Shown piece after piece: positions 11,722 to 52,138 of a stretch of 64,000 nt of DNA (position 1 is its first letter; each line of letters starts with the position of its first letter). The notes under the pieces were generated by a model. It saw only the letters and a program-made list of their open reading frames with translations. It was not told the DNA's origin and made no database searches. Source of the DNA: a virus (Duplodnaviria; Heunggongvirae; Uroviricota; Caudoviricetes). The stretch is from positions 169,278 to 233,277 of the IMG/VR virus record IMGVR_UViG_3300042905_002309; one strand, given 5' to 3'. The translations under genes were made by a program, and so were the position numbers.

Positions 11722-11730
11722 GAGAATATT

Positions 11731-12057: not shown

Positions 12058-12167
12058 GAATAAATATTAGTAACAGCTAGACGAATGGATTGACAAATTA
12101 ACAAATCAATCGCCAGTAAATCTCCCCTGAAACTGGAAAGCGGGTATTAAGCCTCGCAACCTCCTTA

Positions 12168-12224: not shown

Positions 12225-12276
12225 TATTAACAGTTGAACGTCATTAGTAACAAATCAAAACGAAAGTGTGAAGATT

Positions 12277-12531: not shown

Positions 12532-12548
12532 ATAAAATTTAATGTAAT

Positions 12549-12623
12549 GCTCCTAAAACTTTTATGGTGAAGTACCAGACTTTTAATCTGGTTAATTCAG
12601 TTCAAGTCTGAATAGGAGTACCA
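12549..12623 (+). tRNA. tRNA-Lys (anticodon UUU), CCA encoded
   Basis: Hand-folded cloverleaf. Acceptor GCTCCTA/TAGGAGT (G1-U72), D-arm ACTT-TTATGGTG-AAGT, anticodon arm CCAGA-CTTTTAA-TCTGG, T-arm TTCAG-TTCAAGT-CTGAA, then A-CCA. Confidence 0.85.
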
Positions 12624-12738
12624 AAACAATCCAAGAATCCCCAAGAGTAACGTGGTAGGGATAAACGAAGCAACACATTCATAGGCTCATTAGTGTTGTT
12701 GTGAATGAGACAGGGTTACTCACACTTTAAGGAATGTT

Positions 12739-12912
12739 ATGAATCGAGAAGAATTTATTAAACAGTTTGTGCTAAACTATACCGCTATTAAGTTCGCTAA
12801 CACCAATATTGGGACTCAAAGTTATGTAGATACTAAACGAGCAATTGAGAATGCTACATTTCTCGCTAAATCTCTCGCATATCGAGTATGGGATGAACTA
12901 CATAAGGATTAA
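12739..12912 (+). CDS. hypothetical 57-aa protein
   Basis: SD AAGGAA upstream. Below the track size cutoff. Confidence 0.45.
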   Translation: MNREEFIKQFVLNYTAIKFANTNIGTQSYVDTKRAIENATFLAKSLAYRVWDELHKD

Positions 12913-12919
12913 ATTTAAT

Positions 12920-13168
12920 ATGAAATATGTTATCGGTGATGATCTTTTTGCAGTAATTTTTAATGAAGCTATTTCACATGACAAGGTTCGTTGTGGTATG
13001 CGTATCACGAGTGCAGGGTTCTGTAGCATAGACCATAGCGGAGAAGATAGGTGTTTTGAAGATGATGTTATTGTGAAGGTTTGGGGAAAATCGGTCAGTC
13101 TAGGACTCGATTCACTTCCTGATGATGCAGAAATTATAAAGCAAACACTCAGTTTTAAAGGATTTTAA
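12920..13168 (+). CDS. hypothetical protein
   Basis: ATG 12920. The track start at 12845 overlaps the previous ORF. Confidence 0.55.
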   Translation: MKYVIGDDLFAVIFNEAISHDKVRCGMRITSAGFCSIDHSGEDRCFEDDVIVKVWGKSVSLGLDSLPDDAEIIKQTLSFKGF

Positions 13169-13171
13169 TTT

Positions 13172-13254
13172 GGCTACGTGGTGGAATTGGCATACACAAG
13201 GGACTTAAAATCCCTCGCTTCGGCATAAGGGTTCGACTCCCTTCGTAGCCACCA
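13172..13254 (+). tRNA. tRNA-Leu (anticodon UAA), type II, CCA encoded
   Basis: Acceptor GGCTACG/CGTAGCC, anticodon arm AGGGA-CTTAAAA-TCCCT, long variable arm CGCTTCGGCAT, T-arm AAGGG-TTCGACT-CCCTT, then A-CCA. Confidence 0.9.
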
Positions 13255-13260
13255 ATTTAT

Positions 13261-13380
13261 GGGAACGACCTATATGATAGATATGTTTAGTACTGGACAT
13301 ATTAATTCTATAATGGTAGATAGGTGAAAAGGGGTAGATATACCCAATATGTGGAAGTTCGACTCTTCCCGTTCCTGCCA
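13261..13380 (+). ncRNA. oversized (120 nt) tRNA-like gene of unknown identity
   Basis: Canonical acceptor GGGAACG/CGTTCCT, T-arm GGAAG-TTCGACT-CTTCC and G-CCA end. The 80-nt body contains a duplicated D-arm-like segment and a GGGTA-GATA-TACCC hairpin. No standard anticodon arm was found by hand. Confidence 0.4.
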
Positions 13381-13386
13381 ACTTGA

Positions 13387-13444
13387 AAAGAAAACTTGAG
13401 CATTTTAAAACAATATTGACAATTTAATCAGAAAGGTGTAAAGT
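13387..13444 (+). promoter_or_regulatory. early-type promoter (TTGACA 13416-13421, N17, TAAAGT 13439-13444)
   Basis: Read directly from sequence. Confidence 0.65.
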
Positions 13445-13451
13445 ATTAATT

Positions 13452-13625
13452 ATGACTATACAAGATGCTAAAGAGGTGCGTATCGGTGAATCGGTGTTGG
13501 TGAATGGTTGTTTGTCAACTGTGCTAAACACTATGCCATTGTCGGCAGATAAGGTGTTATTTGAAGTATGTAATAAATATGATGGTGTTATCGATGTAAC
13601 CCATCAAGAGATTGAATTGTTTTAA
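13452..13625 (+). CDS. hypothetical 57-aa protein
   Basis: ATG is 7 nt after the -10 box, so possibly leaderless. Below the track size cutoff. Confidence 0.45.
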   Translation: MTIQDAKEVRIGESVLVNGCLSTVLNTMPLSADKVLFEVCNKYDGVIDVTHQEIELF

Positions 13626-13650
13626 GGATAAATTGTGATGTAACAAGTAA

Positions 13651-13836
13651 ATGAAAGCCAAACCAATACCAAAAGTTTGTAAGTTTTGTGAAGTAGTGCC
13701 TGAATTGAAACGAGCGTCTAACCAGTTCAGGTATGAATGTCCTAAGTGCTTCTTATGCACACCTTTATATAAGAATAAGGTGAGGGCTAGAGGATATTGG
13801 AATAAATTTAATAAGAACTTGAAGAGTGAATTATGA
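13651..13836 (+). CDS. Lar-family-like zinc-ribbon protein (possible restriction alleviation)
   Basis: CKFC...CPKC followed by ...RGYWNKFN recalls the Lar family pattern CPFCG...C..C...A..WN.R. Confidence 0.4.
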   Translation: MKAKPIPKVCKFCEVVPELKRASNQFRYECPKCFLCTPLYKNKVRARGYWNKFNKNLKSEL

Positions 13837-14066
13837 AAAAAATTAAAGTAACTGGTTATGTGATTGAGACACCAGACGGTGATACACTCGATTCAACGTT
13901 TGATAATGATCCTACTGAATGTATCGGCAGATTTATGTATAAGTTTAATATCTTCACTAAACTTAATGAAGATGATCCATATCTTGATTATATTTGTTGG
14001 AATGATTTGTATGAAGATGGGTATCGAGTTGTGCCAGTAACTTTGACAGGAGTTGTAAGCAAATGA
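13833..14066 (+). CDS. hypothetical protein
   Basis: ATGA overlap with the upstream gene. Confidence 0.55.
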   Translation: MKKIKVTGYVIETPDGDTLDSTFDNDPTECIGRFMYKFNIFTKLNEDDPYLDYICWNDLYEDGYRVVPVTLTGVVSK

Positions 14067-14326
14067 GTATGCACATTAACGGTATGCCAATTGAAGTCTT
14101 TCGTCAGCAGATTCGTTTCAGCAAGGCGAAGAACATCACAGGTGATGCAGACCTTATCATTGGTGCATCACAGCCCCTTGACGATCAGATTAAATTTAAT
14201 GTGAACCCTGTAACTGGTACAATTGAGGTCTTGACAAGTGAAGTGCCTTCTGTTAGTGTTGTACCGATGGTTGAAGAAGTAAAAGAAATAGTAAATAAAG
14301 GAGAAAAAGATGAGCAAAACGTTTAA
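14063..14326 (+). CDS. hypothetical protein
   Basis: ATGA overlap with the upstream gene. Confidence 0.55.
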   Translation: MSMHINGMPIEVFRQQIRFSKAKNITGDADLIIGASQPLDDQIKFNVNPVTGTIEVLTSEVPSVSVVPMVEEVKEIVNKGEKDEQNV

Positions 14327-14504
14327 AACTAAGAATGACCCTTCTTTCCGTATTCCTACTGTTGTGATTGAAGTTCGTGGTGGAGTTCCTAATATTGTAA
14401 GGAAAGATAAATGTATCTCGTTGGTAATCAAGGACATGGATTGTGGTGATGATAATGAGAAACTTGGTAAAGATATCGTATCTCTTTCATATGAGAAAGT
14501 TTAA
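14310..14504 (+). CDS. hypothetical protein
   Basis: SD AAAGGAG upstream. Confidence 0.55.
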   Translation: MSKTFKTKNDPSFRIPTVVIEVRGGVPNIVRKDKCISLVIKDMDCGDDNEKLGKDIVSLSYEKV

Positions 14505-14513
14505 GAGTACAAT

Positions 14514-14777
14514 ATGTTCCTATTAATTCTAGTTATAGGTGTACTAACTGTATCACAGTATTACATGTGGGGTAAGATTCTTCGTTATGAAGGCGAAATG
14601 CGTATCATGAAGGAAGTTACCTTAAAGTTTATCAAGCGTTATTACAATCAAGATAGTGAATTGTATAAACGTGCTGACCAGATTGAGCGTACAAAGTGGA
14701 GTCCTGATATCATTGAAAACCACATGGCAGAAGGTAATCCACCCGCTGAAACATTGCTTCCTTTCGTAGGGCGATAA
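14514..14777 (+). CDS. small membrane-anchored protein
   Basis: N-terminal TM segment FLLILVIGVLTV. Confidence 0.55.
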   Translation: MFLLILVIGVLTVSQYYMWGKILRYEGEMRIMKEVTLKFIKRYYNQDSELYKRADQIERTKWSPDIIENHMAEGNPPAETLLPFVGR

Positions 14778-14832
14778 GAAAACATTAAAATTTCACGCAG
14801 TAGTTGACAAGTCACAGGGGATAGTTCATACT
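14776..14832 (+). promoter_or_regulatory. conserved early-type promoter cassette (TTGACA 14804-14809, N17, CATACT 14827-14832)
   Basis: Read directly from sequence. Drives rIIA-rIIB. Confidence 0.75.
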
Positions 14833-14884
14833 TATTGAAGTTGAGTGCATAAGGCATCAAACGTAAAACAAGGTGAGATTAGTT

Positions 14885-34847: not shown

Positions 34848-36038
34848 ATGAAAGAGATTAAAGGACAATTTAATACTGCGAAGGTGTTTGCATCAACAGT
34901 CGAACCTTCTTGTGAAGCACAAATTTTAGAGTTATGTAATGAAGAATGGGTATATAACTCTAAAATACGCATTATGGCAGACTGTCATTCTGGTAAGGGA
35001 TGTGTTATTGGTACTACTATGACAATTATTGATAAAATTGTTCCTAATTTAACCGGGGTTGATATCGGATGTGGGGTTCTTGTGACTAAATTTGATACGC
35101 TTTCTTTAACCTTGGAACAGGTTGACTCAATTGTTAAGCGTAACATCCCTATGGGTATGAATTCTCGTCAGTCTATGGTGGTTGACTTTACTCCTGAATT
35201 GGATAAGGCTATCTGTAAGGAAGCTTTTGATCCTCGTCAGGTTTGTAAGTCCATTGGTTCGTTGGGTGGTGGAAACCACTTTATCGAAATTGATAAGGAC
35301 GATGAGGGTAATTTTTATTTAGTCGTACATACGGGTTCTCGTAACTTTGGTAAGCGTGTTGCTGAACATTACCAGAACAAGGCTGTTGATTATCATTCCA
35401 AGAAGGGTTTGAAGTCTACTCAAGAAATCATTAACGAGTTGAAAGCCAAGGGGTTACAACACATGATTCCTGCTGAATTGAAGAAACGTAATGCCGTGGC
35501 TAACGAAGCTTTGACCTATTTGGAAGGTGACTTGTTTGATTGTTACTTAAACGATATGCATATTGCTCAGAAGATGGCAAGTGAGAACCGTAAGGCTATT
35601 GCAGATATCTTGTGCCGTACAATGCATATTAAGCCTACTGAACAATTTGAAACGATTCATAACTACATTGATGTTCATGCTATGATTTTGCGTAAAGGTG
35701 CTATCTCTGCGAAAGCGGGTGAAGTGTGCTTAATTCCTATCAATATGCGTGATGGTTCGTTAATCTGTGTTGGTAAGGGTAACGAAGATTATAACTATTC
35801 TGCGCCTCATGGTGCAGGTCGTTTAATGTCTCGTAAACAGGCGAAGCGTGAATTGTCTTTGGAAGGGTTCAAGGATACGATGAAGGATATTTATTCATCT
35901 ACGGTGGGTGCGTCTACGTTGGACGAAGCACCTGATGCTTACAAGCCTATTGCTGAAATCTTGGAGAACATTCAGGATACGGTTACGGTGTTGAAGCAGA
36001 TCAAGCCTATTTACAATGTGAAAGCGGAAGAGGAATAA
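34848..36038 (+). CDS. rtcB: RtcB RNA 3'-phosphate/2',3'-cyclic-phosphate ligase
   Basis: GVDIGCG, GGGNHFIE, HTGSRNFG and SAPHGAGR motifs. Confidence 0.92.
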   Translation: MKEIKGQFNTAKVFASTVEPSCEAQILELCNEEWVYNSKIRIMADCHSGKGCVIGTTMTIIDKIVPNLTGVDIGCGVLVTKFDTLSLTLEQVDSIVKRNIPMGMNSRQSMVVDFTPELDKAICKEAFDPRQVCKSIGSLGGGNHFIEIDKDDEGNFYLVVHTGSRNFGKRVAEHYQNKAVDYHSKKGLKSTQEIINELKAKGLQHMIPAELKKRNAVANEALTYLEGDLFDCYLNDMHIAQKMASENRKAIADILCRTMHIKPTEQFETIHNYIDVHAMILRKGAISAKAGEVCLIPINMRDGSLICVGKGNEDYNYSAPHGAGRLMSRKQAKRELSLEGFKDTMKDIYSSTVGASTLDEAPDAYKPIAEILENIQDTVTVLKQIKPIYNVKAEEE

Positions 36039-36394: not shown

Positions 36395-36973
36395 ATGGAC
36401 ATTCGCAAAGTTAGTAAAATATTGTGTTTAAGTTTACGACATAAACCAGAACTTTTGAAATTGAATATGGATTCCGAAGGTTGGGTTGATGTCAATGAAT
36501 TAATCCGCAGATACAATAATTACTATAAGCCTGACACTTACCTTAATAGGAATTTTCTTGATAAGGTGGTTGAAGAGAACAATAAGAAGCGTTTCGCCTA
36601 TAGTGATGATGGTACAAAGATTCGTGCCTCTCAGGGACATTCGATTAATATTAATTTGAATCTTCCTGAGAGTGTTCCAGAAGATATTTTATATCATGGA
36701 ACAGCTAAACGTTTTCTTAATGGTATCATGAAAGAAGGTTTGAAGAAAATGGAGCGTCAACACGTTCATTTATCTGACAATCTTAAAACAGCTTATTCAG
36801 TAGGTTCACGACATGGAGAACCTATTATTCTTATGGTACATGCGGGTGTAATGCATAAGAATGGGTTTAAGTTTTACAAATCCGAGAATGGGGTATGGTT
36901 GACTGATAATGTTCCGAAACAATATCTTGACTTTGCACCAATAATTGCGTATACTACTGGCTACGGTAAATAA
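36395..36973 (+). CDS. kptA: RNA 2'-phosphotransferase Tpt1/KptA
   Basis: LSLRHKPE...GWV...SQGHS...LYHGT...HVHLS motifs. Confidence 0.88.
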   Translation: MDIRKVSKILCLSLRHKPELLKLNMDSEGWVDVNELIRRYNNYYKPDTYLNRNFLDKVVEENNKKRFAYSDDGTKIRASQGHSININLNLPESVPEDILYHGTAKRFLNGIMKEGLKKMERQHVHLSDNLKTAYSVGSRHGEPIILMVHAGVMHKNGFKFYKSENGVWLTDNVPKQYLDFAPIIAYTTGYGK

Positions 36974-37796: not shown

Positions 37797-37825
37797 TTGA
37801 CTAATACAATTAAACAATGTAGTCT
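37797..37825 (+). promoter_or_regulatory. leaderless-type promoter (TTGACT 37797-37802, N17, TAGTCT 37820-37825, ATTAAAC, ATG 37833)
   Basis: Read directly from sequence. The track TTG start codon is actually the -35 box. Confidence 0.6.
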
Positions 37826-37832
37826 ATTAAAC

Positions 37833-38960
37833 ATGAATAAAACATATCCAATTATTTACAAAAGAACTAAAACGTCAGCAATTCAGACATGGCAGATCAT
37901 AGTCGAGGGTAACACTTATTATACCGTAGATGGTCAAATAGACGGTGTTAAGAGCAAATCTGCGCCTACTGTGTGTAAGGGTAAGAACATTGGCAAGGCT
38001 AATGAGACTTCCGATGAACAACAGGCTATTGCAGAGGCAGAAGCTAAAATTGAAAAGAAGCTTAAAACAGGCTATAGTGAAGATATTGCAAATATCGATA
38101 CCTGTCTAAAGTATTTTGAGCCACAACTTGCTGAAAAGTATATTGAATTTAAGGATAGTGTTGTATTCCCCATCTTGGCAAGTCGTAAGATCGATGGTGC
38201 AAGAATGGTGAATACAGCTACAGCTATTACCACTCGTAAGGGTGAAGATTATCTAAGCTGTCCACATATTCAGAAGGCACTTAAACCCTTCTTTGCCAAG
38301 CATCCTAAAGGTGTGGTTGATGGTGAAATTTATTCACACGGTCAATTCTTTGAGAAGATCATGAGTCTTGTGCGTAAGAAGAAACCAACACAAGCTGAAA
38401 TTGATGAAAGTGAGAAGCTTTGTAAATTGTGGATTTTCGATGGTATTGTAGACGATTCAAAGGAAGGTTTTGCAAAGCGTTTTTCAGACCTTAAACGAGA
38501 ATTGAAGGCTACTATTGATTCTAAAACACTTGAAAAGTATTTTGTGTTTGTAGAGAATGTAGTAATCAACAGTCATGAAGCGTTTGAAGCTGAACATGAT
38601 AAGTATGCGGGTGAAGGATTTGAAGGTGCAATTCTTCGTTATGCCAATGCTCCGTATTACAATAAGCGTAGTAAGTATCTTTTGAAGTATAAGCATTTCA
38701 TTGATGAAGAGTTTGTGATTGTTGATTTTCTTGAAGGTACTGGTTCTGATGCAGGGTTGGCTAGTAAGATCGTAGTCCGTTTGAAAGATGGTTCAACGTC
38801 AGAAGCGGGTATCCGTGGTGATACTGCATACGTCACTCAGTTGTTGAAGGATCGTAAGCATTACATTGGCAAAAAGGCAACAGTTCGTTATCAGAATTTC
38901 ACCAAGTATGGTAAGTTACATTTTGGTGTAGCGGTTAATATTGATCGATTTGATATATGA
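37833..38960 (+). CDS. ATP-dependent DNA ligase
   Basis: Motif I KIDGARM, motif IV EGAILR, motif V LLKYK. Confidence 0.85.
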   Translation: MNKTYPIIYKRTKTSAIQTWQIIVEGNTYYTVDGQIDGVKSKSAPTVCKGKNIGKANETSDEQQAIAEAEAKIEKKLKTGYSEDIANIDTCLKYFEPQLAEKYIEFKDSVVFPILASRKIDGARMVNTATAITTRKGEDYLSCPHIQKALKPFFAKHPKGVVDGEIYSHGQFFEKIMSLVRKKKPTQAEIDESEKLCKLWIFDGIVDDSKEGFAKRFSDLKRELKATIDSKTLEKYFVFVENVVINSHEAFEAEHDKYAGEGFEGAILRYANAPYYNKRSKYLLKYKHFIDEEFVIVDFLEGTGSDAGLASKIVVRLKDGSTSEAGIRGDTAYVTQLLKDRKHYIGKKATVRYQNFTKYGKLHFGVAVNIDRFDI

Positions 38961-40300: not shown

Positions 40301-41041
40301 ATGAAAGAAGTAAAAATAGTAGCAACTAGCGATATACATGGGGAACTTGAATTCAAGATTCCTTCTGGTGATATTTTGACTATTAGTGGTGATATCTGTC
40401 CTGTTAATGGCTCACATAATCCGACTAATCAGATGTATTGGCTTAAAAACCATTTCCTACCTTGGACTGACCAGTTAATTAAGAATAAAGTGGTTAAGCA
40501 TGTTGTCTTTATTGCGGGGAACCATGATTTCGTCTTTAAAAAGGTTACTACTAATACTACAGGTGATTTCTATATGTCGTTACCTGATAATGTACATTTT
40601 CTAAACGATTCTGGCGTTGAACTTGAAGGTGTTAAAATCTATGGTACACCGTGGACACCGACCTTTGGTAATTGGGCGTTTATGACTTGTGAGGAAGCTT
40701 TGGATAATATTTATTCTAAGATTCCAGAAGGTTTGGATATACTTTTATCTCATGGCCCTGCTTATGGTTGGAATGATGTAATCTTAAAAGGCCCGTATAA
40801 AAGTTATTCCAGAGAAGATGAACATATCGGTTCAAAATCTTTGAGAAAACACATACTTAGAGCTAAACCTAAACATTTTTGTTATGGTCACATACATGAG
40901 TGTTCACATACTCCGTTAATTATTCCACATATTAACGAAAATATTGAACGGGTATCAGAAACTACTAGTAATTGTGTTTCTTTGCTTAATGATGATTATG
41001 AGATTGAATATCCAACATATCAATTTAATCTTGTAAAATAG
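40301..41041 (+). CDS. calcineurin-like metallophosphoesterase
   Basis: SDIHG, GDI, GNHD, HGP and GHIH motifs. Confidence 0.75.
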   Translation: MKEVKIVATSDIHGELEFKIPSGDILTISGDICPVNGSHNPTNQMYWLKNHFLPWTDQLIKNKVVKHVVFIAGNHDFVFKKVTTNTTGDFYMSLPDNVHFLNDSGVELEGVKIYGTPWTPTFGNWAFMTCEEALDNIYSKIPEGLDILLSHGPAYGWNDVILKGPYKSYSREDEHIGSKSLRKHILRAKPKHFCYGHIHECSHTPLIIPHINENIERVSETTSNCVSLLNDDYEIEYPTYQFNLVK

Positions 41042-41093
41042 GTTTGTACATATCATTATACGATGAAAAAATTACAGGAGAAAGTGTATAAAA

Positions 41094-41582
41094 ATGAAAG
41101 AAATTAGATACGAAACTAATATACATACATTAAAATTTGATGTACCTAGTATTTTTCTAGCGGGTGTGACTGTTAGAGGAAATCAAACCCACTTGACTTC
41201 ATGGCGTTTTGAAGCTATTGAATTATTCAAGTCTAAAGGATTTGATGGCAATTTAATCATTCCTGAATTTATTGATAAGACTGAATCTGATAAGTATCGC
41301 TATGATTTACCAGTGTGGGAAAATTGTGGACTTTCGAATTCACATGTGATAATGTTTTGGATACCACGAACAAGAGAATTAATTGGACTTACGACTAATT
41401 TTGAAATGGGTTATTGGATGGCTCGACATCGTAGAAAACTTGTCTACGGTAGACCTGATGATTCATTTCGACATAATTATAATGATATCATGTGGGTGGA
41501 AGATGCTCAACGAGTTGGTGCGTCATGTCCAATTTATAACACTTTGGAGAAGACGGTTGATGCCTCTTTAAAACATTTATGA
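41094..41582 (+). CDS. nucleoside 2-deoxyribosyltransferase-like protein (paralog of 57408-57881)
   Basis: IFLAG...WR.EA....GF.G....PE...FWIPR...GLTTN.E.G motifs are shared with the second copy. Confidence 0.5.
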   Translation: MKEIRYETNIHTLKFDVPSIFLAGVTVRGNQTHLTSWRFEAIELFKSKGFDGNLIIPEFIDKTESDKYRYDLPVWENCGLSNSHVIMFWIPRTRELIGLTTNFEMGYWMARHRRKLVYGRPDDSFRHNYNDIMWVEDAQRVGASCPIYNTLEKTVDASLKHL

Positions 41583-41812
41583 ATAACCATATTAAAACTT
41601 GTCCATATTGTCAAGGTGATGGCGTTGTGACTAAAGATTGGGAAGATATTGAAGTCGGTGATGTAGTTATTTGGAAAGGTTATGGTAACACTCCATCTTA
41701 TATAGTAACTGCTATCGAATCAAGAATCCCCATACATAGTTGGATTGTTGAACATGATGGTGATAAGTTTGAAATGTATGAAGCTAATTTTGGTGGCTTT
41801 GTAAAGGATTAA
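41579..41812 (+). CDS. hypothetical protein (CPYCQG)
   Basis: ATGA overlap with the upstream gene. Confidence 0.55.
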   Translation: MNNHIKTCPYCQGDGVVTKDWEDIEVGDVVIWKGYGNTPSYIVTAIESRIPIHSWIVEHDGDKFEMYEANFGGFVKD

Positions 41813-41813
41813 T

Positions 41814-42239
41814 ATGCAAACATTTTTACCATCTAATGATTTTATCGAATGTGCTAAAATACTCGATAAACGGAGACTCAATAAACAGAAGGTTGAATGT
41901 TATCAAATATTAAAAACATTGCATCTAGGTGATAATGCTAAAGGTTGGCGTAATCATCCTATTGTTAAAGCGTGGAGAACACATGAGGAAACATTAATCG
42001 AATATTCATTAATTATTGCCAACGAATGTATCAAACGTGGTATGAAGGATACATTAATACCTAAAATTTCAGAATTTAAAAATTATTTCAAAAATACTAC
42101 ATATCCTTCTTGGTTAGGTGACGAAGCTTTTCATAACACACATAAATCAAATTTAATGCGTAAAGCACCGGAATACTATAAACAATTCAATTGGAAGGTT
42201 CCCAATAATTTACCGTATATTTGGCCTATTGGTAATTGA
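41814..42239 (+). CDS. Pyr_excise-like (pyrimidine-dimer DNA glycosylase family) protein
   Basis: LDKRRLNKQKVECYQIL...GWRNHPIVKAWR...ECIKRG resembles the remembered family pattern LD...L...R.E......GY.NHP...F. Confidence 0.45.
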   Translation: MQTFLPSNDFIECAKILDKRRLNKQKVECYQILKTLHLGDNAKGWRNHPIVKAWRTHEETLIEYSLIIANECIKRGMKDTLIPKISEFKNYFKNTTYPSWLGDEAFHNTHKSNLMRKAPEYYKQFNWKVPNNLPYIWPIGN

Positions 42240-42270
42240 CATTCAATAAGAAGGGGTATATGGTTACGCT

Positions 42271-42666
42271 ATGAAAATTAACAAAGTAAATATGATTAAT
42301 GTAAGTGAATGGGATAAGCTCGTAAAGGATACTTATAAGCGACCATATTGCTTCCAACAACAAGATGGGTGTAAAGATCGAGGAACTTTTCCTATAACTG
42401 TACCAGAGTTTGCAGATGATTATGAAAATGATACTGTTCCAGAAGAGGTCAATCACGAAGAAATGGGTGTAAGTTTTAAGGCATGGCTTAATCGTGACCC
42501 CAAATCACCATTGAAAGACGAAGAAGAGGGTAGTGACACAGAACAATGGGAGATTGATATGTGGTGGGATCGCAACTTCTATCCTAATATTCAAATGATT
42601 GCAAACGATTTACAGGAACGTGGTCTATTAGATGCTGGTGATTATGTGATAAATATTGATTGGTGA
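42271..42666 (+). CDS. hypothetical acidic protein
   Basis: 131-aa ORF. Confidence 0.55.
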   Translation: MKINKVNMINVSEWDKLVKDTYKRPYCFQQQDGCKDRGTFPITVPEFADDYENDTVPEEVNHEEMGVSFKAWLNRDPKSPLKDEEEGSDTEQWEIDMWWDRNFYPNIQMIANDLQERGLLDAGDYVINIDW

Positions 42667-42670
42667 AATT

Positions 42671-42952
42671 ATGAAATGTATACAAACTTACGCAAAATGT
42701 CGTTTGAATAAGGGTACTTGTGGTTATAGTTGCAGATATTTGTTAGTAGAGAAACCTATTACAAAAGTTGCCAAAAAGAAGAAGGTATTTCCTAATGCAA
42801 ATCTTACCCGTATACCTAAATGGTTTAATTATATGTTTGAATGCACGTTGGAACAATGCCCAACTGCAAGAACATTTCCAGAACTTTTGGCCTATAGAGC
42901 GTATCTATTAGGTAAGGCTACTGAAAAATATCCTGCGGATTATACGAAATAA
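42671..42952 (+). CDS. hypothetical protein
   Basis: ATG 42671. Confidence 0.5.
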   Translation: MKCIQTYAKCRLNKGTCGYSCRYLLVEKPITKVAKKKKVFPNANLTRIPKWFNYMFECTLEQCPTARTFPELLAYRAYLLGKATEKYPADYTK

Positions 42953-42953
42953 G

Positions 42954-42982
42954 TTGACTTTGAAATTAGAATAGCATAGAGT
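42954..42982 (+). promoter_or_regulatory. promoter (TTGACT 42954-42959, N17, TAGAGT 42977-42982)
   Basis: Read directly from sequence. Followed by about 280 nt without an ORF. Confidence 0.55.
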
Positions 42983-43270
42983 ATTACTTTCAGAACGAGG
43001 TAGGATTAGAAGTGTCCATCCTTTAAAGAGTGAGTCGAATAAAAGGAATAGTTACATATTCATAAATGGGTGATCCCGTTTAACACGTTCCAAAAGCGTT
43101 AATATGTCCAACATAAATAGACTATTAGATATATGAAGAAGTCTTGGTTGACGGTGTATGAGAAGGTTGGATTAAATCTACAGCACAACGAAAGTAACGG
43201 TAGGCCAAGCTTTAGACTCTTTGGTGTAATAACACAATTCTGAAATTCATTGATAAAATAGAAAGGAAAT

Positions 43271-43513
43271 ATGTTTAAATTTAATAAAAAGTTAATTACG
43301 GTAGATGAAATTCAAAAAGAGGTTGACACTTATGAATGTTGGTCGGTGGAATGGATATCACATACTGGCGATTATTATGCATACAGGAGAAACTGTAAAG
43401 AGTTTTTTACCAAAGAAGATGATGCTAATATATTTCACAAGAATATTGTTGACGCAGGTAAACTTCTTAGATACAACGCATTAACGGTATATCCTGTTAA
43501 AAAAGAAAATTAA
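43271..43513 (+). CDS. hypothetical protein
   Basis: SD AAAGGAAA upstream. Confidence 0.55.
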   Translation: MFKFNKKLITVDEIQKEVDTYECWSVEWISHTGDYYAYRRNCKEFFTKEDDANIFHKNIVDAGKLLRYNALTVYPVKKEN

Positions 43514-43521
43514 AATATTAG

Positions 43522-43550
43522 TTGACTTTGTAACGAAAATAGTAAACAAT
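43522..43550 (+). promoter_or_regulatory. promoter, copy 1 of GTTGACTTTGTAACGAAAATAGTAAA (ATG 43557 lies 6 nt after the -10 box)
   Basis: A 26-27 nt stretch is identical to 43781-43807. Confidence 0.55.
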
Positions 43551-43556
43551 TGATTT

Positions 43557-43778
43557 ATGAAACGTGGTAAAAAATCCTGTACTAATAAGAAAAAATGGGC
43601 AGACACCCTTCCAGACCCACAATTTTGCATAAGGTGTAAGAAAAGTGCTGATGGTTATATCTTAAAAGATAGTATTTTGGATAGTTATACCACAGAAGGT
43701 TCACAACCACCCGCAAAATTGGGCATATGTAAACAATGTAAACAATCGTCTGGAACAAGAATATATTGGTATAAATAG
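43557..43778 (+). CDS. small basic zinc-ribbon protein
   Basis: CIRCKK...CKQCKQ motifs. Probably leaderless. Confidence 0.55.
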   Translation: MKRGKKSCTNKKKWADTLPDPQFCIRCKKSADGYILKDSILDSYTTEGSQPPAKLGICKQCKQSSGTRIYWYK

Positions 43779-43781
43779 TTG

Positions 43782-43810
43782 TTGACTTTGTAACGAAAAT
43801 AGTAAATAAT
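43782..43810 (+). promoter_or_regulatory. promoter, copy 2 of GTTGACTTTGTAACGAAAATAGTAAA, followed by a 9-bp-stem hairpin in the 5' UTR
   Basis: AAACATTGC...GCAATGTTT hairpin at 43813-43848, upstream of the NAD salvage genes. Confidence 0.55.
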
Positions 43811-43880
43811 TGAAACATTGCGATAGATAATAGTTATAAGCAATGTTTAACTGAAATAATAAGATCGAAAGGAAAATATT

Positions 43881-44789
43881 ATGAAGAAAGTAGAGAAACC
43901 TACCGAGGATATCGGAATTGTGATAGGGCGTTTTCAGGTGCATGAACTCCATTCTGCACATTTAGATTTAATTCAAAGTGTTTGCAATGAACATGAGAAA
44001 GTTATTATCTTTCTTGGATTAAGTCCTTTAATGGTTACATCAAATAACCCTTTAGACTTTGAATCCCGTAAACAAATGATTTTAGAGAGTTTTCCAAAAG
44101 TTATTGTAATGTATATTAAAGATAATCCATCTGATGAAGTTTGGTCTAAAGATTTAGATGAAAAAATCCGAGATTTAGCAAGTCCTACGCAATCCGTTGT
44201 CCTATACGGAAGTAGAGATTCTTTCATTACACATTATTCTGGTAAGTATCGTACACAAGAATTGATGCAGGAAACTTATATTTCTGGTTCTGAAATTCGT
44301 AAGAATATTTCAAAGAAGGTTAAATCTTCTGCGGATTTCCGAGCAGGGGTGATTTGGGCTTCTGGAAATCGTTTTCCTACCTGTTTTCCTTGTGTTGATA
44401 TCGCTATCTTCAATGAAGATTATAGTAAGATTCTATTAGCTAGGAAGGCTAAAGAAACACTCTACCGCTTTGTAGGAGGCTTCGCAGACCCTAAATCAGA
44501 CTGTTACGAGACTGATGCCCGTAGAGAGGTTCAAGAGGAAACTGGACTCGAAATTGGGGATTTGAAATATCTTGGTAGTACTATTATCAACGATTTTCGT
44601 TACAGACGAGAAATAGATAAAGTCAAAACACTATTTTTTGTTGGAAAAATCTTATTTGGTCGTCCAGAAGCGAATGATGATATCTGTGAAGTCAAATTCT
44701 TTGATATTGACAAGCTAACGGCTACTGATATGATTCCTGAACATAAGCCATTATTTGATATGTTACAAAAATATTTGAAGAAATCTTAA
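43881..44789 (+). CDS. bifunctional NMN adenylyltransferase / Nudix hydrolase (NadM-Nudix, NatV-like)
   Basis: N-terminal GRFQVHELHSAH nucleotidyltransferase motif. C-terminal Nudix box REVQEETGLE. Confidence 0.8.
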   Translation: MKKVEKPTEDIGIVIGRFQVHELHSAHLDLIQSVCNEHEKVIIFLGLSPLMVTSNNPLDFESRKQMILESFPKVIVMYIKDNPSDEVWSKDLDEKIRDLASPTQSVVLYGSRDSFITHYSGKYRTQELMQETYISGSEIRKNISKKVKSSADFRAGVIWASGNRFPTCFPCVDIAIFNEDYSKILLARKAKETLYRFVGGFADPKSDCYETDARREVQEETGLEIGDLKYLGSTIINDFRYRREIDKVKTLFFVGKILFGRPEANDDICEVKFFDIDKLTATDMIPEHKPLFDMLQKYLKKS

Positions 44790-44790
44790 A

Positions 44791-44982
44791 ATGAACGACT
44801 TATTTGAAAAAGAGCCAATATGCTTTGAAAGTCCTGAAAAGAATGTATGGAAATATATTTTCCACTTTAAAGTGGCTATAGCGGAAGCAGTATTATACCG
44901 TTATAACTCTTTTGAAGATAGGACAGTTCTTTGCGTTTCGGTTTCTAGTGGCTGTAGCGTTGGATTTTTTAGAGGGTTGTAA
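44791..44982 (+). pseudogene. 63-aa remnant resembling the N-terminal region of an RlmN/Cfr-type radical SAM methyltransferase
   Basis: WKYIF...AEAVLY...EDRTVLCVSVSSGC resembles remembered RlmN IKWAIAV...[22 protein letters not shown]. The ORF stops before any CxxxCxxC motif. Confidence 0.35.
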
Positions 44983-45035
44983 GTTATATTTGAAACGAAG
45001 AGAAGAATTGAAAAAAGCATTGAAAGGATAAAATT

Positions 45036-46415
45036 ATGGAAAACAACATTATTACATTGACTGATAGTTATAAATTTACGCATTTTCAACAGTATCCCAA
45101 AGGTACGGAATACATTTACTCATACTTTGAGTCTCGTAATGGAGCCAAGTACAACAAGACTGTGTTTTTCGGTTTGCAATATTACCTTAAAGCATACTTG
45201 CAGGGTACGGTAGTTACTCGTAAGGGTATCGAAAGTGCCGCAAAACTTTGTAAGGCTCACTTTGGTACTGAAAAGAATTTTAATCGTGAGATGTGGGAAT
45301 ACATACTTGAGAAGTATGATGGGAAGCTACCTATCAGCATCAAGGCAGTACCAGAAGGTACTCCTGTATCAGTTTCAAACGTTCTTATGACGGTTGTTAA
45401 TACTGATCCTAAGTGTGCGCCTTTGACGAATCATTTGGAAACATTATTGTCTCAGATTTGGGGAGCTTCGACTGTCGCAAGTCTTTCCTATGAGACATAT
45501 AAATTGATTGAATTTTATCGTGATCGCACAGGAACACGTAATGGAATTAAGTTTGGTTTACATGATTTTGGATTCAGGGGTGTTAGCTCTGTAGAATCTG
45601 CTGGTGTGCTTGGTGCAGGACATTTGCTAAATTTTCTTGGTACTGATACCGTAAAGGCTATGGAAGTGGCAATGGAATACTACAATGCACCACTAGACGG
45701 ATTGGCATATTCAGTCCCGGCTACTGAACATTCGGTCATGACAGCTAGGGGTAAAGAAGGCGAAGAACAAGTTTTTGCTGAATTACTTGGTACATATCCA
45801 GAAGGTATCTTGAGTGTGGTTATCGATTCTTACGACTATAAGAACTTTGTAAATGTAATTGTTCGTAAGTATAAGGATGTGATTCTTGCTCGTAATGGTA
45901 AGCTTGTTTTACGCCCAGATTCGGGCGATCCCACATCTGTAACAATTGATGTGTTTAATATGGTTGCGGATATCTTTGGAACAACTAAAAATGACAAAGG
46001 TTATAAGGAATTACACCCAAAACTTGGTGTTCTATGGGGTGACGGTATTGATTATGCGGGTATCCGTAGCATCTTATTCAGTTTGAGTAATAATATGTAC
46101 TCTACTGATAGTCAAGTTTTTGGTCAAGGTGGAGGCTTACTACAAAAGATCGACAGGGATTTTCAGCGTTTTGCATTTAAATCTTCTGCACAATGCCGTG
46201 AGGGTGTATGGTACGATATCTTTAAAAATCCTTTGGAAGTTAGTAAGGTTTCCAAGAAAGGTAAGTTGAAACTCATTAAAGATGAAAAGGGTGATTTTCA
46301 TACTGTTGGATTAAGTGATCCTCGTCCTGACGAATTAGTTGAAGTGTTTCGTGATGGTGAAATCCTTAAAGAATATACCTTTGACGAAGTTCGTAAGAAT
46401 GTTGGAACTTGGTGA
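45036..46415 (+). CDS. nadV: nicotinamide phosphoribosyltransferase (NadV/NAMPT)
   Basis: NIITLTDSYKFTH..QYP N-terminus, GFRG, and length about 460 aa. Confidence 0.88.
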   Translation: MENNIITLTDSYKFTHFQQYPKGTEYIYSYFESRNGAKYNKTVFFGLQYYLKAYLQGTVVTRKGIESAAKLCKAHFGTEKNFNREMWEYILEKYDGKLPISIKAVPEGTPVSVSNVLMTVVNTDPKCAPLTNHLETLLSQIWGASTVASLSYETYKLIEFYRDRTGTRNGIKFGLHDFGFRGVSSVESAGVLGAGHLLNFLGTDTVKAMEVAMEYYNAPLDGLAYSVPATEHSVMTARGKEGEEQVFAELLGTYPEGILSVVIDSYDYKNFVNVIVRKYKDVILARNGKLVLRPDSGDPTSVTIDVFNMVADIFGTTKNDKGYKELHPKLGVLWGDGIDYAGIRSILFSLSNNMYSTDSQVFGQGGGLLQKIDRDFQRFAFKSSAQCREGVWYDIFKNPLEVSKVSKKGKLKLIKDEKGDFHTVGLSDPRPDELVEVFRDGEILKEYTFDEVRKNVGTW

Positions 46416-49927: not shown

Positions 49928-49935
49928 GGAGTAGT

Positions 49936-50280
49936 ATGAAAATTCGAAGTGGATTTGTAAGTAATAGTTCAAGTAGTTCATTCATCGTACAGGCATGTGA
50001 TGTAGAACGTGCTAAAAGTATGGGTTTAACACTCATTTCAGTTAAAACTCTTAAAGAGTATAATAAAAAGCTTACAGAACTTGAAAACTCTAAAGCTGAG
50101 ATTATGAAGGATGTGCCTAGTTTTCTTGGTGGTGGATATAATTATTATGGATCACAAATTGATATCTTAGGTATTGATAATTTGGATGATGCAGATTTCA
50201 TTTCGGAGCCGTATGACCGTGATGAGGCGTATAGAAGTGGTATGGATGATTATTTTAGCACATTTTTGAGTGACTTGTAA
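49936..50280 (+). CDS. paralog 1 of the MKIRxGFVSNSSSSSF family (114 aa)
   Basis: SD AAGGAG upstream. N-terminus MKIRSGFVSNSSSSSF. 8-nt gap after the radical SAM gene. Confidence 0.8.
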   Translation: MKIRSGFVSNSSSSSFIVQACDVERAKSMGLTLISVKTLKEYNKKLTELENSKAEIMKDVPSFLGGGYNYYGSQIDILGIDNLDDADFISEPYDRDEAYRSGMDDYFSTFLSDL

Positions 50281-50288
50281 GGAGATTT

Positions 50289-51098
50289 ATGAAAATTAGA
50301 AACGGATTTGTGAGTAACAGTAGTTCTAGTAGCTTTGTGGTAGTATTACCTAAAAAGCCTGAATACTGTCAACAAGTTTATGAAATGTTATTCAATAGTA
50401 AGAAAGAGATAATCAAAGAAGAGTATTTAGGTGAATTGGATACTCATCAAATTTCAGAACTCGTATATAGGGATTTAGTCAATACTAAATTCAAGAGAGC
50501 TACGGTTCAAGAGGTTGCTGACTTATTTTCTGCACGTTATCATTATTGGATCAACGCTAATAGTCTCATGATGGATAATAAGGTCGTTGATAAAGACGGT
50601 GGAACCTTTTACTGTGCATCCAATAATTTTTGGGGTACTGATAAGAAGTTATTAGAATTATACAAACAATCCGTTATCAAATGTGACAAAAACTCCAAAA
50701 TGATTCAGAAACGTGCTAACGAAGTTGAAAAGAATGCACCGAATCGTGTTGAATATGCTTATAAAGACGGAAAGAATTATAAGGACGTACCTTATACTGA
50801 TACCCAAATTAAAGCCTATAAGAAATACGAAAAAGAACTTGACTTTTATCAGAAAAATGATAAAGTTTACAAAGATTTTATCAAATGGAGAGATAAGATT
50901 CATAGGTCTGATTGGGACTTGGAGCATAAATATCGCCATGCGTTAGCTAAAGTAGATGCCAAAGCATTTTTGAAGGCGTACAAGGGTAAGTTTGTATTCA
51001 CTACATCTTATTCAGATAATGATGGTTCAATTGGAGCCTTGATGGAGCATGGAAATATTTTTAGAAATGTCGAGCATGAGCGTATTAGTATGCATTAA
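50289..51098 (+). CDS. paralog 2 of the MKIRxGFVSNSSSSSF family (269 aa)
   Basis: SD AAGGAG upstream. N-terminus MKIRNGFVSNSSSSSF. Confidence 0.8.
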   Translation: MKIRNGFVSNSSSSSFVVVLPKKPEYCQQVYEMLFNSKKEIIKEEYLGELDTHQISELVYRDLVNTKFKRATVQEVADLFSARYHYWINANSLMMDNKVVDKDGGTFYCASNNFWGTDKKLLELYKQSVIKCDKNSKMIQKRANEVEKNAPNRVEYAYKDGKNYKDVPYTDTQIKAYKKYEKELDFYQKNDKVYKDFIKWRDKIHRSDWDLEHKYRHALAKVDAKAFLKAYKGKFVFTTSYSDNDGSIGALMEHGNIFRNVEHERISMH

Positions 51099-51109
51099 GA
51101 AAGGAAATT

Positions 51110-51409
51110 ATGAAAATTAGACAAGGATTTGTAAGTAACAGTTCTAGCAGTTCGTTCTGCATCTATGGTGCGTACCTTGGTGAAGATCGTGATGAAGCAG
51201 AAGCTATTGAAGCGAAGATTGGTGAACTTGGATTAAAATTAGAGGTTCATTATGGGGAGTATACTCGATGTGTTGGACGCTCATGGTGTTCTATCGGAAA
51301 TGATGAAACTGGTAAAGCATTCAAGGATGGTATTGATGAAGCTGTAACGAAACTTGGTCTTGATGCCAAAAAGACCACTACAATCGAAGAGTCTTGGTAT
51401 AACGGTTAA
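51110..51409 (+). CDS. paralog 3 of the MKIRxGFVSNSSSSSF family (99 aa)
   Basis: SD AAAGGAAA upstream. N-terminus MKIRQGFVSNSSSSSFC. Confidence 0.8.
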   Translation: MKIRQGFVSNSSSSSFCIYGAYLGEDRDEAEAIEAKIGELGLKLEVHYGEYTRCVGRSWCSIGNDETGKAFKDGIDEAVTKLGLDAKKTTTIEESWYNG

Positions 51410-51418
51410 GGAGAAATT

Positions 51419-51796
51419 ATGAAAATTAGAAACGGATTTGTGAGTAATAGTAGTTCAAGTAGTTTTTGTATCTTTGGTGTCGAGTTGACCGAAAAGGAAT
51501 ACAAAGCACTTATAGCAAAAGAAATTGCTGCAATGAAAGAAGAAGAGGGTGAAGATTTTGATGAAGAAAGTTGCGATATCCAAGATATGCTTTCAGAATG
51601 CGCCTATATTAAAAAGAATAAGTTAGATATAGTATCAACGTCCTTGGATGGTGTCAGTCTTTGTATTGGATTAGATTTATCAGATTCTTCATTAAAAGGT
51701 GAAAAACTTATTATTGAACTTACCAGAATTCATAATATTTTAAATCGTGATTATTCCCATGAGGTAGAAATCTTTTCGGGTGAGACTTATAATTAA
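51419..51796 (+). CDS. paralog 4 of the MKIRxGFVSNSSSSSF family (125 aa)
   Basis: SD AAGGAG upstream. N-terminus MKIRNGFVSNSSSSSFC. Confidence 0.8.
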   Translation: MKIRNGFVSNSSSSSFCIFGVELTEKEYKALIAKEIAAMKEEEGEDFDEESCDIQDMLSECAYIKKNKLDIVSTSLDGVSLCIGLDLSDSSLKGEKLIIELTRIHNILNRDYSHEVEIFSGETYN

Positions 51797-51805
51797 GGAA
51801 TAAAT

Positions 51806-52138
51806 ATGAAAATTAGAAACGGTTTTGTAAGTAATAGTAGCAGTTCTTCATTTATTTGTTCAGTCTGTGGTGAATCTGAAACATATTATGATGGGCTTGA
51901 AGAAGCGGGTGCAATACAGTGTGAAGGTCAATGGCATATTTTCCACGAGGATTGTGTCAAGAAATTTGATCTTGAATTTACGGAAGACCGTAATTATGGT
52001 AAATGTGTGACAAGAGCTAGTTGTCCTATTTGTAATCTTTCGGTTCTTCCAGACAGTGACGAGTTGACATTCTTACGTGAAAAGTATAAGATGTCTAAAG
52101 ATGAGATTCTAACAGAGTTACGTAAAACGAAAGGTTAA
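51806..52138 (+). CDS. paralog 5 of the MKIRxGFVSNSSSSSF family (110 aa, Cys-rich, zinc-ribbon-like)
   Basis: SD AAGGAA upstream. N-terminus MKIRNGFVSNSSSSSFICSVCG, later CPICN. Confidence 0.8.
   Translation: MKIRNGFVSNSSSSSFICSVCGESETYYDGLEEAGAIQCEGQWHIFHEDCVKKFDLEFTEDRNYGKCVTRASCPICNLSVLPDSDELTFLREKYKMSKDEILTELRKTKG

Follow-up and report, generated by a model that had tools for sequence, protein, structure and literature searches.

NAD+ (nicotinamide adenine dinucleotide) riboswitches of class I (the nadA motif) and class II (the pnuC motif) are cis-regulatory RNAs that precede NAD+ biosynthesis and salvage genes, with class I comprising two tandem stem-loop domains. In autogenous operators, such as those of T4 gp32, gp43 and RegA or the leaders of ribosomal-protein and ThrRS genes, a protein reads a conserved hairpin loop around the Shine–Dalgarno sequence or the AUG and co-evolves with it. 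The guanidine-II riboswitch (mini-ykkC) consists of two small hairpins that share a conserved loop motif and are joined by a linker variable in both length and sequence, the ribosome-binding site being located at the second hairpin, P2 (PMC5558903). At the transcriptional level, the bacterial nadM–nadV genes are controlled by NrtR, a repressor with Nudix and winged helix–turn–helix (wHTH) domains that responds to ADP-ribose; NrtR recognises 21-bp palindromes built on a GT-N7-AC core, and NadR sites read TGTTTA-N6-TAAACA (PMC2330246). In phage KVP40, a nicotinamide phosphoribosyltransferase (NAMPT) and a nicotinamide mononucleotide (NMN) adenylyltransferase (NMNAT) form the pathway named NARP2, which rebuilds NAD+ and defeats Thoeris and DSR2; NARP2 overproduces NAD+, consumes phosphoribosyl pyrophosphate (PRPP) and is toxic in, or could not be cloned in, Escherichia coli (bioRxiv 10.1101/2024.02.11.579819). 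Here we analyse the corresponding gene pair in a 64,000-nt stretch of an uncultured Caudoviricetes phage (IMG/VR record IMGVR_UViG_3300042905_002309, positions 169,278 to 233,277; hereafter the window, in whose numbering all coordinates are given) and describe the two-hairpin RNA leader that precedes it. The gene pair is known, and the leader is previously uncatalogued.

A conserved two-hairpin leader at the NMNAT-Nudix start codon

The pair comprises a gene for a NadM-Nudix type bifunctional NMN adenylyltransferase/Nudix hydrolase (NMNAT-Nudix; 43881–44789, + strand; 302 amino acids) and, 246 nt past it, the NAMPT/NadV nicotinamide phosphoribosyltransferase gene (45036–46415, + strand; 459 amino acids). 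The full leader, delimited as a covariance-model match at 43803–43886 (+ strand), contains in this order TAAATAAT, hairpin P1, an A-rich linker, hairpin P2 and ATGAAG. P1 (43813–43848, + strand) is a perfect 9-bp hairpin in which AAACATTGC (43813–43821) and GCAATGTTT (43840–43848) enclose an 18-nt loop (43822–43839; GAUAGAUAAUAGUUAUAA) with the boxes GAUA, GAUA and GUUA. P2 (43856–43882, + strand) has the arms AUAAUA (43856–43861) and UAUUAU (43877–43882), the latter including the A and U of the AUG, and its loop (43862–43876; AGAUCGAAAGGAAAA) carries a GAUC box plus the Shine–Dalgarno GGA (43871–43873). The leader scores 85.7 bits, compared with 20.8 bits for the next-best match in the window with filters off, and the fold of its 76 nt (−12 kcal/mol, z = −3.88) is equalled by none of 200 shuffles. 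An earlier note on this DNA, made by reading the letters, had reported the 9-bp hairpin and proposed it as an element of the 5′ untranslated region: the hairpin is there, conserved, covarying and, judged by its sequence, functional, but P1 is only half of the leader, and the note missed that a covarying two-hairpin structure stands on the NAD-salvage genes of many phages. Pairing of TAAATAAT with the 3′ arm of P2 was considered as an alternative and rejected for lack of covariation in L010 and L133 (L numbers denote related loci).

Phages with 63–81% identical NMNAT-Nudix proteins retain the hairpin leader, and the closest of them also retain the promoter at equal spacing. An alignment of the upstream regions of the four closest relatives reveals the promoter TTGAC(A/T)-N17-AATAAT/AATACT, P1 at the same position and an invariant AGATCGAAAGGAAAA. 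Across the window and these relatives the P1 loop GATAGATAAYAGTTATAA is conserved and the complementary stems around it differ (AAACATTGC/GCAATGTTT, TAGTGATGC/GCATCACTA and GTTATATTAA/TTAATATAAC); stems likewise differ in relatives whose NMNAT-Nudix is 73–81% identical (for example, AAACAUUGC/GCAAUGUUU, UAGUGAUGC/GCAUCACUA and GUUAUAUUAA/UUAAUAUAAC). A conserved non-palindromic loop combined with varying palindromic arms is the signature of RNA structure. We further fetched 80 metagenome loci with homologues at 51–68% identity and folded each upstream region singly. Most of the closer loci yield two hairpins, with a P1 of 8–13 bp, a P2 5′ arm (for example, UAGUA, UAGC, UAGUGAU or AGCU) that complements the bases before and including the A of the AUG, and the Shine–Dalgarno sequence within the P2 loop.

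RNAalifold on a plain MAFFT alignment, in which the variable stems are misaligned, gave no structure. A covariance model was therefore not drawn from that alignment: it started from 3 sequences with a hand-given structure and was then rebuilt on its 14 best matches (model R2). Over 520 kb, R2 gave 17 matches at E < 0.01, 16 of which end at +5 of the NMNAT-Nudix ATG; at the 17th (L152), a GIY-YIG fragment is inserted between the leader and NMNAT-Nudix. Paired cells make up 93.4% of the model alignment of 14 sequences, compared with 62.0% in shuffles (0/500 reach the observed value), both-sided changes are found at 9/9 P1 pairs and 3/6 P2 pairs, and sliding the partner by 1–3 columns brings pairing down to 23–44%. 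The single-sequence folds, which are independent of the model alignment, give the same helices. The two-hairpin leader is a conserved and gene-specific structured RNA, placed on the Shine–Dalgarno sequence and the AUG. A separate scan of IMG/VR with the invariant 15-mer AGATCGAAAGGAAAA returned 119 matches; none of these adjoins NMNAT-Nudix, and all are therefore chance matches.

GAU boxes recur before several NAD+ salvage genes

The P1 loops contain two short boxes 6–8 nt apart (for example, GAUAAAGAU, AGAUUUAGAUA and UGAUAAUGAUA; GAUAGAUAAUAGUUA in the window), and the P2 loops contain one or two boxes directly 5′ of the Shine–Dalgarno sequence (for example, AGAUCGAAAGGA, AGAUAAAAGGAG and AAGAUUAAGAUAAAGGGAGG). 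The boxes are quasi-palindromic, with the cores UA, UGCA and UUAA, and stand in direct repeat; they could pair within one loop or between P1 and P2. Compared with the upstream regions of other genes in the same loci, (A/U)GAUA 5-mers are 3.5-fold enriched, and a P1 of at least 7 bp with GAT in its loop, together with a P2 that also has GAT in its loop, is found in 29% of 72 distinct NMNAT upstream regions versus 1% of 337 controls. In L158, a second complete leader is located between NMNAT-Nudix and NAMPT, before NAMPT; the window NAMPT has its own plain Shine–Dalgarno sequence, without a GAU-box hairpin.

More distant phages have a compact form of ~20–25 nt before both NAMPT and NMNAT-Nudix, in which an anti-Shine–Dalgarno (UCCU, CUCC or CCC) pairs with the Shine–Dalgarno sequence around a two-box loop (for example, UCCUGAUAAAGAUAAGGAG, CUCCAAGAUGCGAUGAUGCAAAGGAGG and CCCAGUUAACUGUUAAAAGGGG; UCCUAGAUGCGAUGAUGCAAAAGGAGG in L183). 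Compact stems whose 3′ arm is not the Shine–Dalgarno sequence still covary (GCCC/GGGC, GACC/GGUC, GGCU/AGCC, CGUC/GGCG and CCAAA/UUUGG). In the GAUGC-type hairpins the stem register varies, making fixed-column pair counting impossible, and a mix-and-match control gave a stem score of at least 3.5 in 75% versus 39%, which amounts to moderate support. Tandem GAT beside the Shine–Dalgarno sequence is present in 16/74 NMNAT and 16/62 NAMPT upstream regions versus 10/377 of those of other genes (Fisher 9e-8 and 7e-9, respectively, among related sequences). Several of these ten ‘other’ matches belong to the radical S-adenosylmethionine (SAM) gene of the cluster (L159 and L179) or to a PncB-like phosphoribosyltransferase gene (L180). 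The latter (position 4983; 386 amino acids, assigned from its N-terminal sequence) lies behind the GAUGC-type hairpin CUCUAGAUGCGUUGAUGCGAAAGGAG, which carries the motif into a second salvage route.

The box type is lineage-specific (GAUA, GAUGC or GUUAA) and common to the leaders of one phage. Specifically, pairing the boxes of leaders within phages matched GAUGC with GAUGC at 5/5 loci, plus three on inspection, GUUUA..GAUA with itself at four loci and GAUW with itself at four loci. We also scanned 2.9 million IMG/VR contigs with the W-restricted pattern CCTGATWWWGATAAGGA and a start-codon filter. Among the 119 matches read, 87 are inside long open reading frames (ORFs) and 23 have no usable downstream ORF; those with a start codon at ribosome-binding distance and an ORF of at least 60 amino acids precede NAMPT in 9/9 cases, from at least six distinct phages. 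One more match precedes a 56-amino-acid ORF of unknown function. The GAUGC-type AGATGCNNNGATGCNAAGGAG occurs in IMG/VR as three distinct sequences: one is coding, and the other two, both intergenic, lie ahead of NAMPT (L293) and NMNAT-Nudix (L296). The pattern TCCTGATNNNGATAAGGAG was discarded as too permissive, matching mostly coding PDxDKE peptides. Leader-bearing phages span 18% to ~50% G+C, presumably with different hosts, and the only genes recurring within 4 kb are those for NMNAT-Nudix, NAMPT and the radical SAM protein. By this distribution, the leader is best described as marking a pathway rather than one gene.

Upstream of NMNAT-Nudix in several relatives (L151, L153, L154, L157 and L296), a few tens of nucleotides separate the GAU-box hairpin from a transfer RNA (tRNA) gene, identified by Rfam in L296, or from what looks by eye like the 3′ end of a tRNA (GGTTCGA...); in those relatives, tRNA processing may release the leader.

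Comparison with known RNA and operator systems

Rfam 15 gave no match for the 5-kb region (E ≤ 1) or the 131-nt leader region (E ≤ 10) of the window, and none in 20 related loci (gathering score) or 10 compact-form loci (E ≤ 1); therefore, the leader is neither a class I or class II NAD+ riboswitch nor a guanidine-II riboswitch. The conserved nucleotides of the two NAD+ classes differ from those of the leader. Guanidine-II is closest in architecture: as in the leader, the linker is variable, the ribosome-binding site is at the second hairpin and the two loops are alike with a self-complementary core, CG there versus UA, UGCA or UUAA here. Conversely, guanidine-II has ACGR tetraloops whereas the leader has 9–20-nt loops with two boxes, the gene association differs, and the box of the leader varies by lineage and has no known ligand. 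Autogenous operators likewise place a hairpin with a conserved loop at the Shine–Dalgarno sequence or AUG, the reader protein of the leader being only putative, and differ in that the leader motif is common to several genes of one pathway. The NrtR-controlled nadM–nadV genes resemble the window in having a homologous gene pair under pathway-specific control (predicted here), but neither the 21-bp site nor a Nudix-wHTH repressor gene was seen here. Full-text searches returned no paper in which phage NAMPT or NadM is tied to a riboswitch or leader, and, within what could be searched, the literature contains no description of how phages control NARP2 or of a regulatory leader on it.

A repeated promoter-like sequence flanks an orphan gene

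The 26-mer GTTGACTTTGTAACGAAAATAGTAAA occurs exactly twice in the window (43521–43546 and 43781–43806), with no third copy at up to three mismatches anywhere in the 64 kb and 0/100 shuffles matching. The 26-nt repeat that the earlier note saw on both sides of a 73-amino-acid ORF is thus real, and it is part of a longer repeat of 41 nt with an identity of 38/41 (copy 1, 43513–43553; copy 2, 43773–43813; both + strand). Both copies fit TTGACT-N17-AAYAAT: copy 1 at 43522–43550 (9/12; −35 TTGACT at 43522–43527 and −10 AACAAT at 43545–43550) and copy 2, the predicted ancestral promoter of the NAD module, at 43782–43810 (10/12; −35 TTGACT at 43782–43787 and −10 AATAAT at 43805–43810). Because a generic scan of this AT-rich region does not exceed chance (17 sites versus 15.5 ± 3.6 in shuffles), it is conservation in relatives, not the scan, that speaks for a promoter: TTGAC(A/T)-N17-AATAAT/AATACT is conserved in L010, L011 and L133, and its TAAATAAT part more widely. 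The repeat looks like a sigma70-type promoter, with predicted activity. A third promoter-like site sharing GTTGACTTTG (42953–42982, + strand; TTGACT-N17-TAGAGT) heads a 318-nt ORF-free stretch (42953–43270), followed by orf80. As a candidate structured RNA this stretch was rejected: it has no Rfam match, folds with a z of only −1.78 and resembles nothing in related loci.

Flanked by the two copies, orf73 (43557–43778, + strand) encodes a basic orphan protein of 73 amino acids, specific to this phage lineage, with two CxxC pairs (C24–C27 and C58–C61) and a net charge of about +10. The gene has no Shine–Dalgarno sequence, its start codon follows the −10 of copy 1 at a distance of exactly 7 nt, and its messenger RNA (mRNA) may be leaderless. 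The protein has no homologue besides itself among 5.8 billion proteins and none in any related locus collected; it matches no Pfam or NCBIfam family and phrog_18167 only at E = 0.002, and its AlphaFold2 model is uninformative (predicted local distance difference test score, 44). The earlier description of a basic zinc-ribbon protein therefore holds for the charge and the two CxxC pairs, whereas the ‘zinc ribbon’ label, for which the CxxC pattern is the sole basis, finds no support in family or structure.

The relatives indicate how this arrangement may have arisen. In L009, L010 and L011/L012 (NMNAT-Nudix 73–81% identical), a single 105–140-nt intergenic region precedes the gene, with no orf73-like ORF or second promoter copy. 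A Metallophos gene directly adjoins the leader region in L011, and the homologous window gene (40301–41041) is set 2.8 kb away from it by small ORFs, which marks the interval as a variable region. The spacer of the promoter differs from phage to phage, whereas the window copies are identical across 26 nt, which points to a recent duplication and not to selection on an operator. The likeliest reading of the repeat is that a promoter cassette was recently duplicated within a variable region; the duplicated promoter of the earlier note is sigma70-like and conserved in relatives, and its duplication is recent and lineage-specific. A promoter-plus-orf73 cassette would have entered the upstream variable region by recombination at the promoter sequence, yielding the order promoter–orf73–promoter–leader–NMNAT, and the promoter–orf73–promoter part is the layout that a circular promoter-plus-ORF cassette integrating through promoter recombination would give. 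Insertion and deletion by recombination between promoter copies is documented for the promoter–stem-loop (PeSL) cassettes of T4-type phages (PMC2839356, PMC4122927). As in PeSLs, sigma70-like promoter repeats (of predicted activity here) surround orphan ORFs in a hyperplastic region. Unlike in PeSLs, there are only two copies, or three if the shared −35 region is counted, and the stem-loop lies outside the 41-nt repeat, is AT-rich rather than G/C-rich, has no U-tract and no terminator call, and belongs to a gene-specific leader. By these features, the orf73 unit is probably not a PeSL in the strict sense. The promoter duplication is ordinary in itself and represents a small, clean case in which a variable region of a phage gained a cassette through a promoter.

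The variable region (40301–43520) also contains a nucleoside 2-deoxyribosyltransferase-like gene (41094–41582), a DenV-type pyrimidine-dimer glycosylase gene (41814–42239) and several orphan ORFs. Elsewhere in the window (343–14845), seven copies of a 64–71-nt promoter cassette (GATAAGAAAACATTAAAATTTCA...TTGACA-N17-nAnACT-TATT) are distributed among small genes, interspersed with tRNA-Tyr (3120), tRNA-Lys (12549) and tRNA-Leu (13172), and form a PeSL-like early-promoter family.

Models for the control of the NAD+ salvage genes

The explanation we favour, if tentatively and at slightly less than even odds in our own judgement, combines an old, pathway-specific translational-control leader on NARP2 genes with a young duplication of the promoter–orf73 cassette. 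From sequence we infer that the promoter is active, where transcription starts, that translation is controlled and what kind of effector acts. P1 would sit at the mRNA 5′ end or close to it, and P2 holds the Shine–Dalgarno sequence in its loop while pairing the first AUG bases; in more distant phages, the Shine–Dalgarno sequence itself is paired with an upstream anti-Shine–Dalgarno. A trans-acting effector could then recognise the boxes and shift the balance between the closed and open ribosome-binding site, thereby tuning the expression of a costly, PRPP-consuming pathway. A phage protein that co-evolves is a likelier effector than a metabolite, because the box differs by lineage and is the same within a phage, and because no extra conserved gene lies nearby; the arrangement of the boxes in direct repeat also argues for a co-evolving protein. 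Possibly, the effector is one of the regulated enzymes acting autogenously, and such a loop would be the simplest version since only NMNAT-Nudix, NAMPT and radical SAM genes recur within 4 kb.

Several points weigh against this explanation. Promoter activity, transcription start and regulation are all predictions. The canonical +1 for TTGACT-N17-AATAAT (~43816–43818) falls inside the 5′ arm of P1, yet the outer P1 pairs covary, and a full P1 would need a start nearer the −10 or upstream read-through. Window transcripts from copy 1 would include the whole leader. Among the relatives, a sigma70-like promoter is found 7–40 nt further upstream in L146, L137, L149, L140, L141, L136 and L009, and even L136 and L141, with their separate upstream sigma70-like promoter, retain TAAATAAT immediately 5′ of P1 (L009 has TAAGTAAT). 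In the window and its closest relatives the Shine–Dalgarno sequence is in the loop and unpaired, and the on/off logic may differ from that of the compact forms. The alignment behind the pair counts was fitted to the model and is thereby biased towards structure, and the Fisher tests overstate independence, the sequences being related. Finally, the motif is absent from the most distant homologue loci (LR756502, Tunturi_5 and high-GC contigs of metagenome-assembled genomes, MAGs), and no candidate RNA-binding protein for the leader was identified.

It is also possible, though we consider it doubtful, that the GAU-box hairpins act as a riboswitch, binding a small molecule of NAD metabolism (NAD+, NMN, nicotinamide, ADP-ribose or PRPP) and changing the pairing of the Shine–Dalgarno sequence or AUG, perhaps through a ligand-dependent P1–P2 loop–loop contact as in guanidine-II. 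The same motif before different genes of one pathway in many genomes is a classic riboswitch signature, the phages range from 18% to ~50% G+C with presumably different hosts, no conserved regulator gene is found within 4 kb, and two like-looped hairpins with a variable linker and the ribosome-binding site in P2 reproduce the guanidine-II layout (PMC5558903). However, the ligand pockets of known riboswitches are nearly invariant, whereas the box sequence changes by lineage (GAUA, GAUGC, GUUAA); moreover, the compact form is only ~20–25 nt and no Rfam riboswitch matches. A specific form of this idea, which we regard as a little more doubtful still, would make the leader a very small new phage riboswitch class in which the like hairpins sense NAD+, nicotinamide or ADP-ribose and gate the ribosome-binding sites of NMNAT-Nudix, NAMPT and the radical-SAM gene; if true, the PRPP cost of counter-defence would be paid only once a host NAD+-depleting defence fires. 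Conversely, there might be no specific effector at all, with P1 guarding the mRNA from 5′-end-dependent decay, the P2 loop presenting the Shine–Dalgarno sequence and the conserved bases forming an extended ribosome-binding context. This is unlikely: the predicted 5′ position of P1, the Shine–Dalgarno sequence in the P2 loop of window-type leaders and the commonness of strong GAAAGGAA...ATG ribosome-binding sites in this phage (family D12) agree with it, but it leaves unexplained the conserved loops with varying stems, the recurrence of the box in both hairpins and its concerted change within phages, the restriction to NAD-salvage genes (29% versus 1%; 9/9 in IMG/VR) and the Shine–Dalgarno/anti-Shine–Dalgarno pairing of the distant forms.

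The remaining explanations place the function in DNA or in the repeat. The earlier note had envisioned the 73-amino-acid zinc-ribbon protein binding the 26-mer in a dedicated circuit for the NAD module, and a small basic protein that has two CxxC pairs and is encoded between identical promoter copies does invite that idea. It finds no support in the comparison with relatives, which conserve the promoter and the hairpin leader without orf73; the protein is an orphan lacking family or structural support, the repeat spans an ordinary −35, spacer and −10, the ORF has no Shine–Dalgarno sequence, and we judge the circuit very improbable. Even less credible are DNA operators through which an NrtR- or NadR-type NAD repressor of host or phage would control nadM–nadV transcription. 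Bacterial nadM–nadV and prs–nadV operons are NrtR-regulated (PMC2330246) and the element overlaps the promoter-proximal region; however, neither the 21-bp palindrome with its GT-N7-AC core nor TGTTTA-N6-TAAACA is present in 43770–43900 (read by eye), arms that vary and covary around a conserved non-palindromic loop are the opposite of a protein-bound DNA palindrome, boxes 6–8 nt apart are not on one face of B-DNA, and the motif follows the Shine–Dalgarno sequence and AUG, inside operons too. We give equally little credence to a PeSL-type promoter/terminator cassette and nothing else, with a hairpin that stops upstream read-through and has no role for the NAD genes. Promoter repeats do flank an orphan ORF in a variable region as in PeSLs, and one PeSL subclass has its stem-loop just past the −10 (PMC2839356), but the hairpin here is AT-rich and followed by an A-rich rather than U-rich tract, no terminator is called, the loop is conserved and the element is gene-specific. 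P1 as an intrinsic terminator was likewise rejected, having neither a G+C-rich stem nor a U-tract, and the downstream sequence is A-rich in all relatives.

A conserved, covarying and gene-specific leader in a large clade of uncultured jumbo phages offers a testable handle on NARP2 control, as either a new protein–RNA operator system or a new small riboswitch. Its signature finds NAD-salvage genes in metagenomes, and it adds a putatively co-regulated radical-SAM gene to the pathway.

The NAD+ genes and their phage

The two enzymes named in the earlier note are borne out by domain, profile and motif matches, and the window pair corresponds by sequence to the NAMPT and NMNAT-Nudix of NARP2, already known biology in which NAD+ rebuilding and defence evasion are established for the KVP40 genes only. 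NMNAT-Nudix combines an N-terminal NadM-type NMNAT with a C-terminal Nudix domain (PF00293 at 5e-13), and a profile of 41 homologues has the Francisella and Synechocystis NadM-Nudix structures as top matches (2QJT/2R5W at 7e-16 and 2QJO at 2e-11). Residues 16–27 read GRFQVHELHSAH, with an H-S-A-H variant of HxGH at 24–27, followed by SGSEIR at 135–140 and the Nudix core REVQEETGL at 215–223 (REUxEExGU box); all 41 homologues share R17, H27, S135 and R140, and at least 90% of them have H24. With a best score of 44.8 bits, the protein falls short of the NCBIfam equivalog cut-off of 409 (PRK05379 models), and the matches are weak but consistent; the window protein is thus, by its sequence, best classed as a divergent relative and not as an equivalog. 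NAMPT contains NAMPT_N (PF18127, 6e-39) and NAPRTase (PF04095, 4e-36) domains, scores 539 bits against NF006629 (cut-off, 405 bits), and matches phrog_448 at 6e-149 and human NAMPT at E = 1e-113.

As in KVP40 (NadV–NatV), the same two enzymes are adjacent and in one orientation in a large phage; unlike there, a radical-SAM gene sits between them in this clade (L132, 4934–5836; L009, 5934–6431; L011, 6149–6931; L159, 5014) and is degraded in the window. Its stump, which the earlier note had also missed, is orf63 (44791–44982, + strand; 63 amino acids), a truncated 5′ remnant of a ~300-amino-acid gene that has lost the CxxxCxxC motif. The radical-SAM gene seems to belong to the NAD module; in L159 and L179 it has its own GAU-box hairpin. 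GIY-YIG homing-endonuclease sequences have invaded the module twice, as a gene in L010 (1554–2369) and a fragment in L152 (698–967), one of them between NMNAT-Nudix and NAMPT and the other between the leader and the NMNAT-Nudix start, where the leader now drives the endonuclease fragment.

The phage is uncultured and large, with contigs of up to 249,720 bp, and was seen in 47 blocks of the collection. It has no DNA similarity to 50,697 phage records, and a single-protein search of IMG/VR gave no close relatives. Within the phage collection, the 642-kb LR756502.1 comes closest, with 44–46% protein identity, and the versions in cultured phages are ~23% (NMNAT-Nudix) and <60% (NAMPT) identical. 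A scan of genome collections assigned no host, returning only five MAG contigs that are probably mis-binned phage.

On the same strand, ~7 kb upstream of the NAD module, lies an RNA-repair cluster with RtcB (34848–36038), Tpt1/KptA (36395–36973) and an ATP-dependent ligase (37797–38960). It is possible that the module feeds this Tpt1, as the earlier note suggested; Tpt1 uses NAD+ only stoichiometrically per RNA repaired. Downstream, at 49934–51853, five paralogous small genes all begin with MKIRxGFVSNSSSSSF (repeat families D3/D4).

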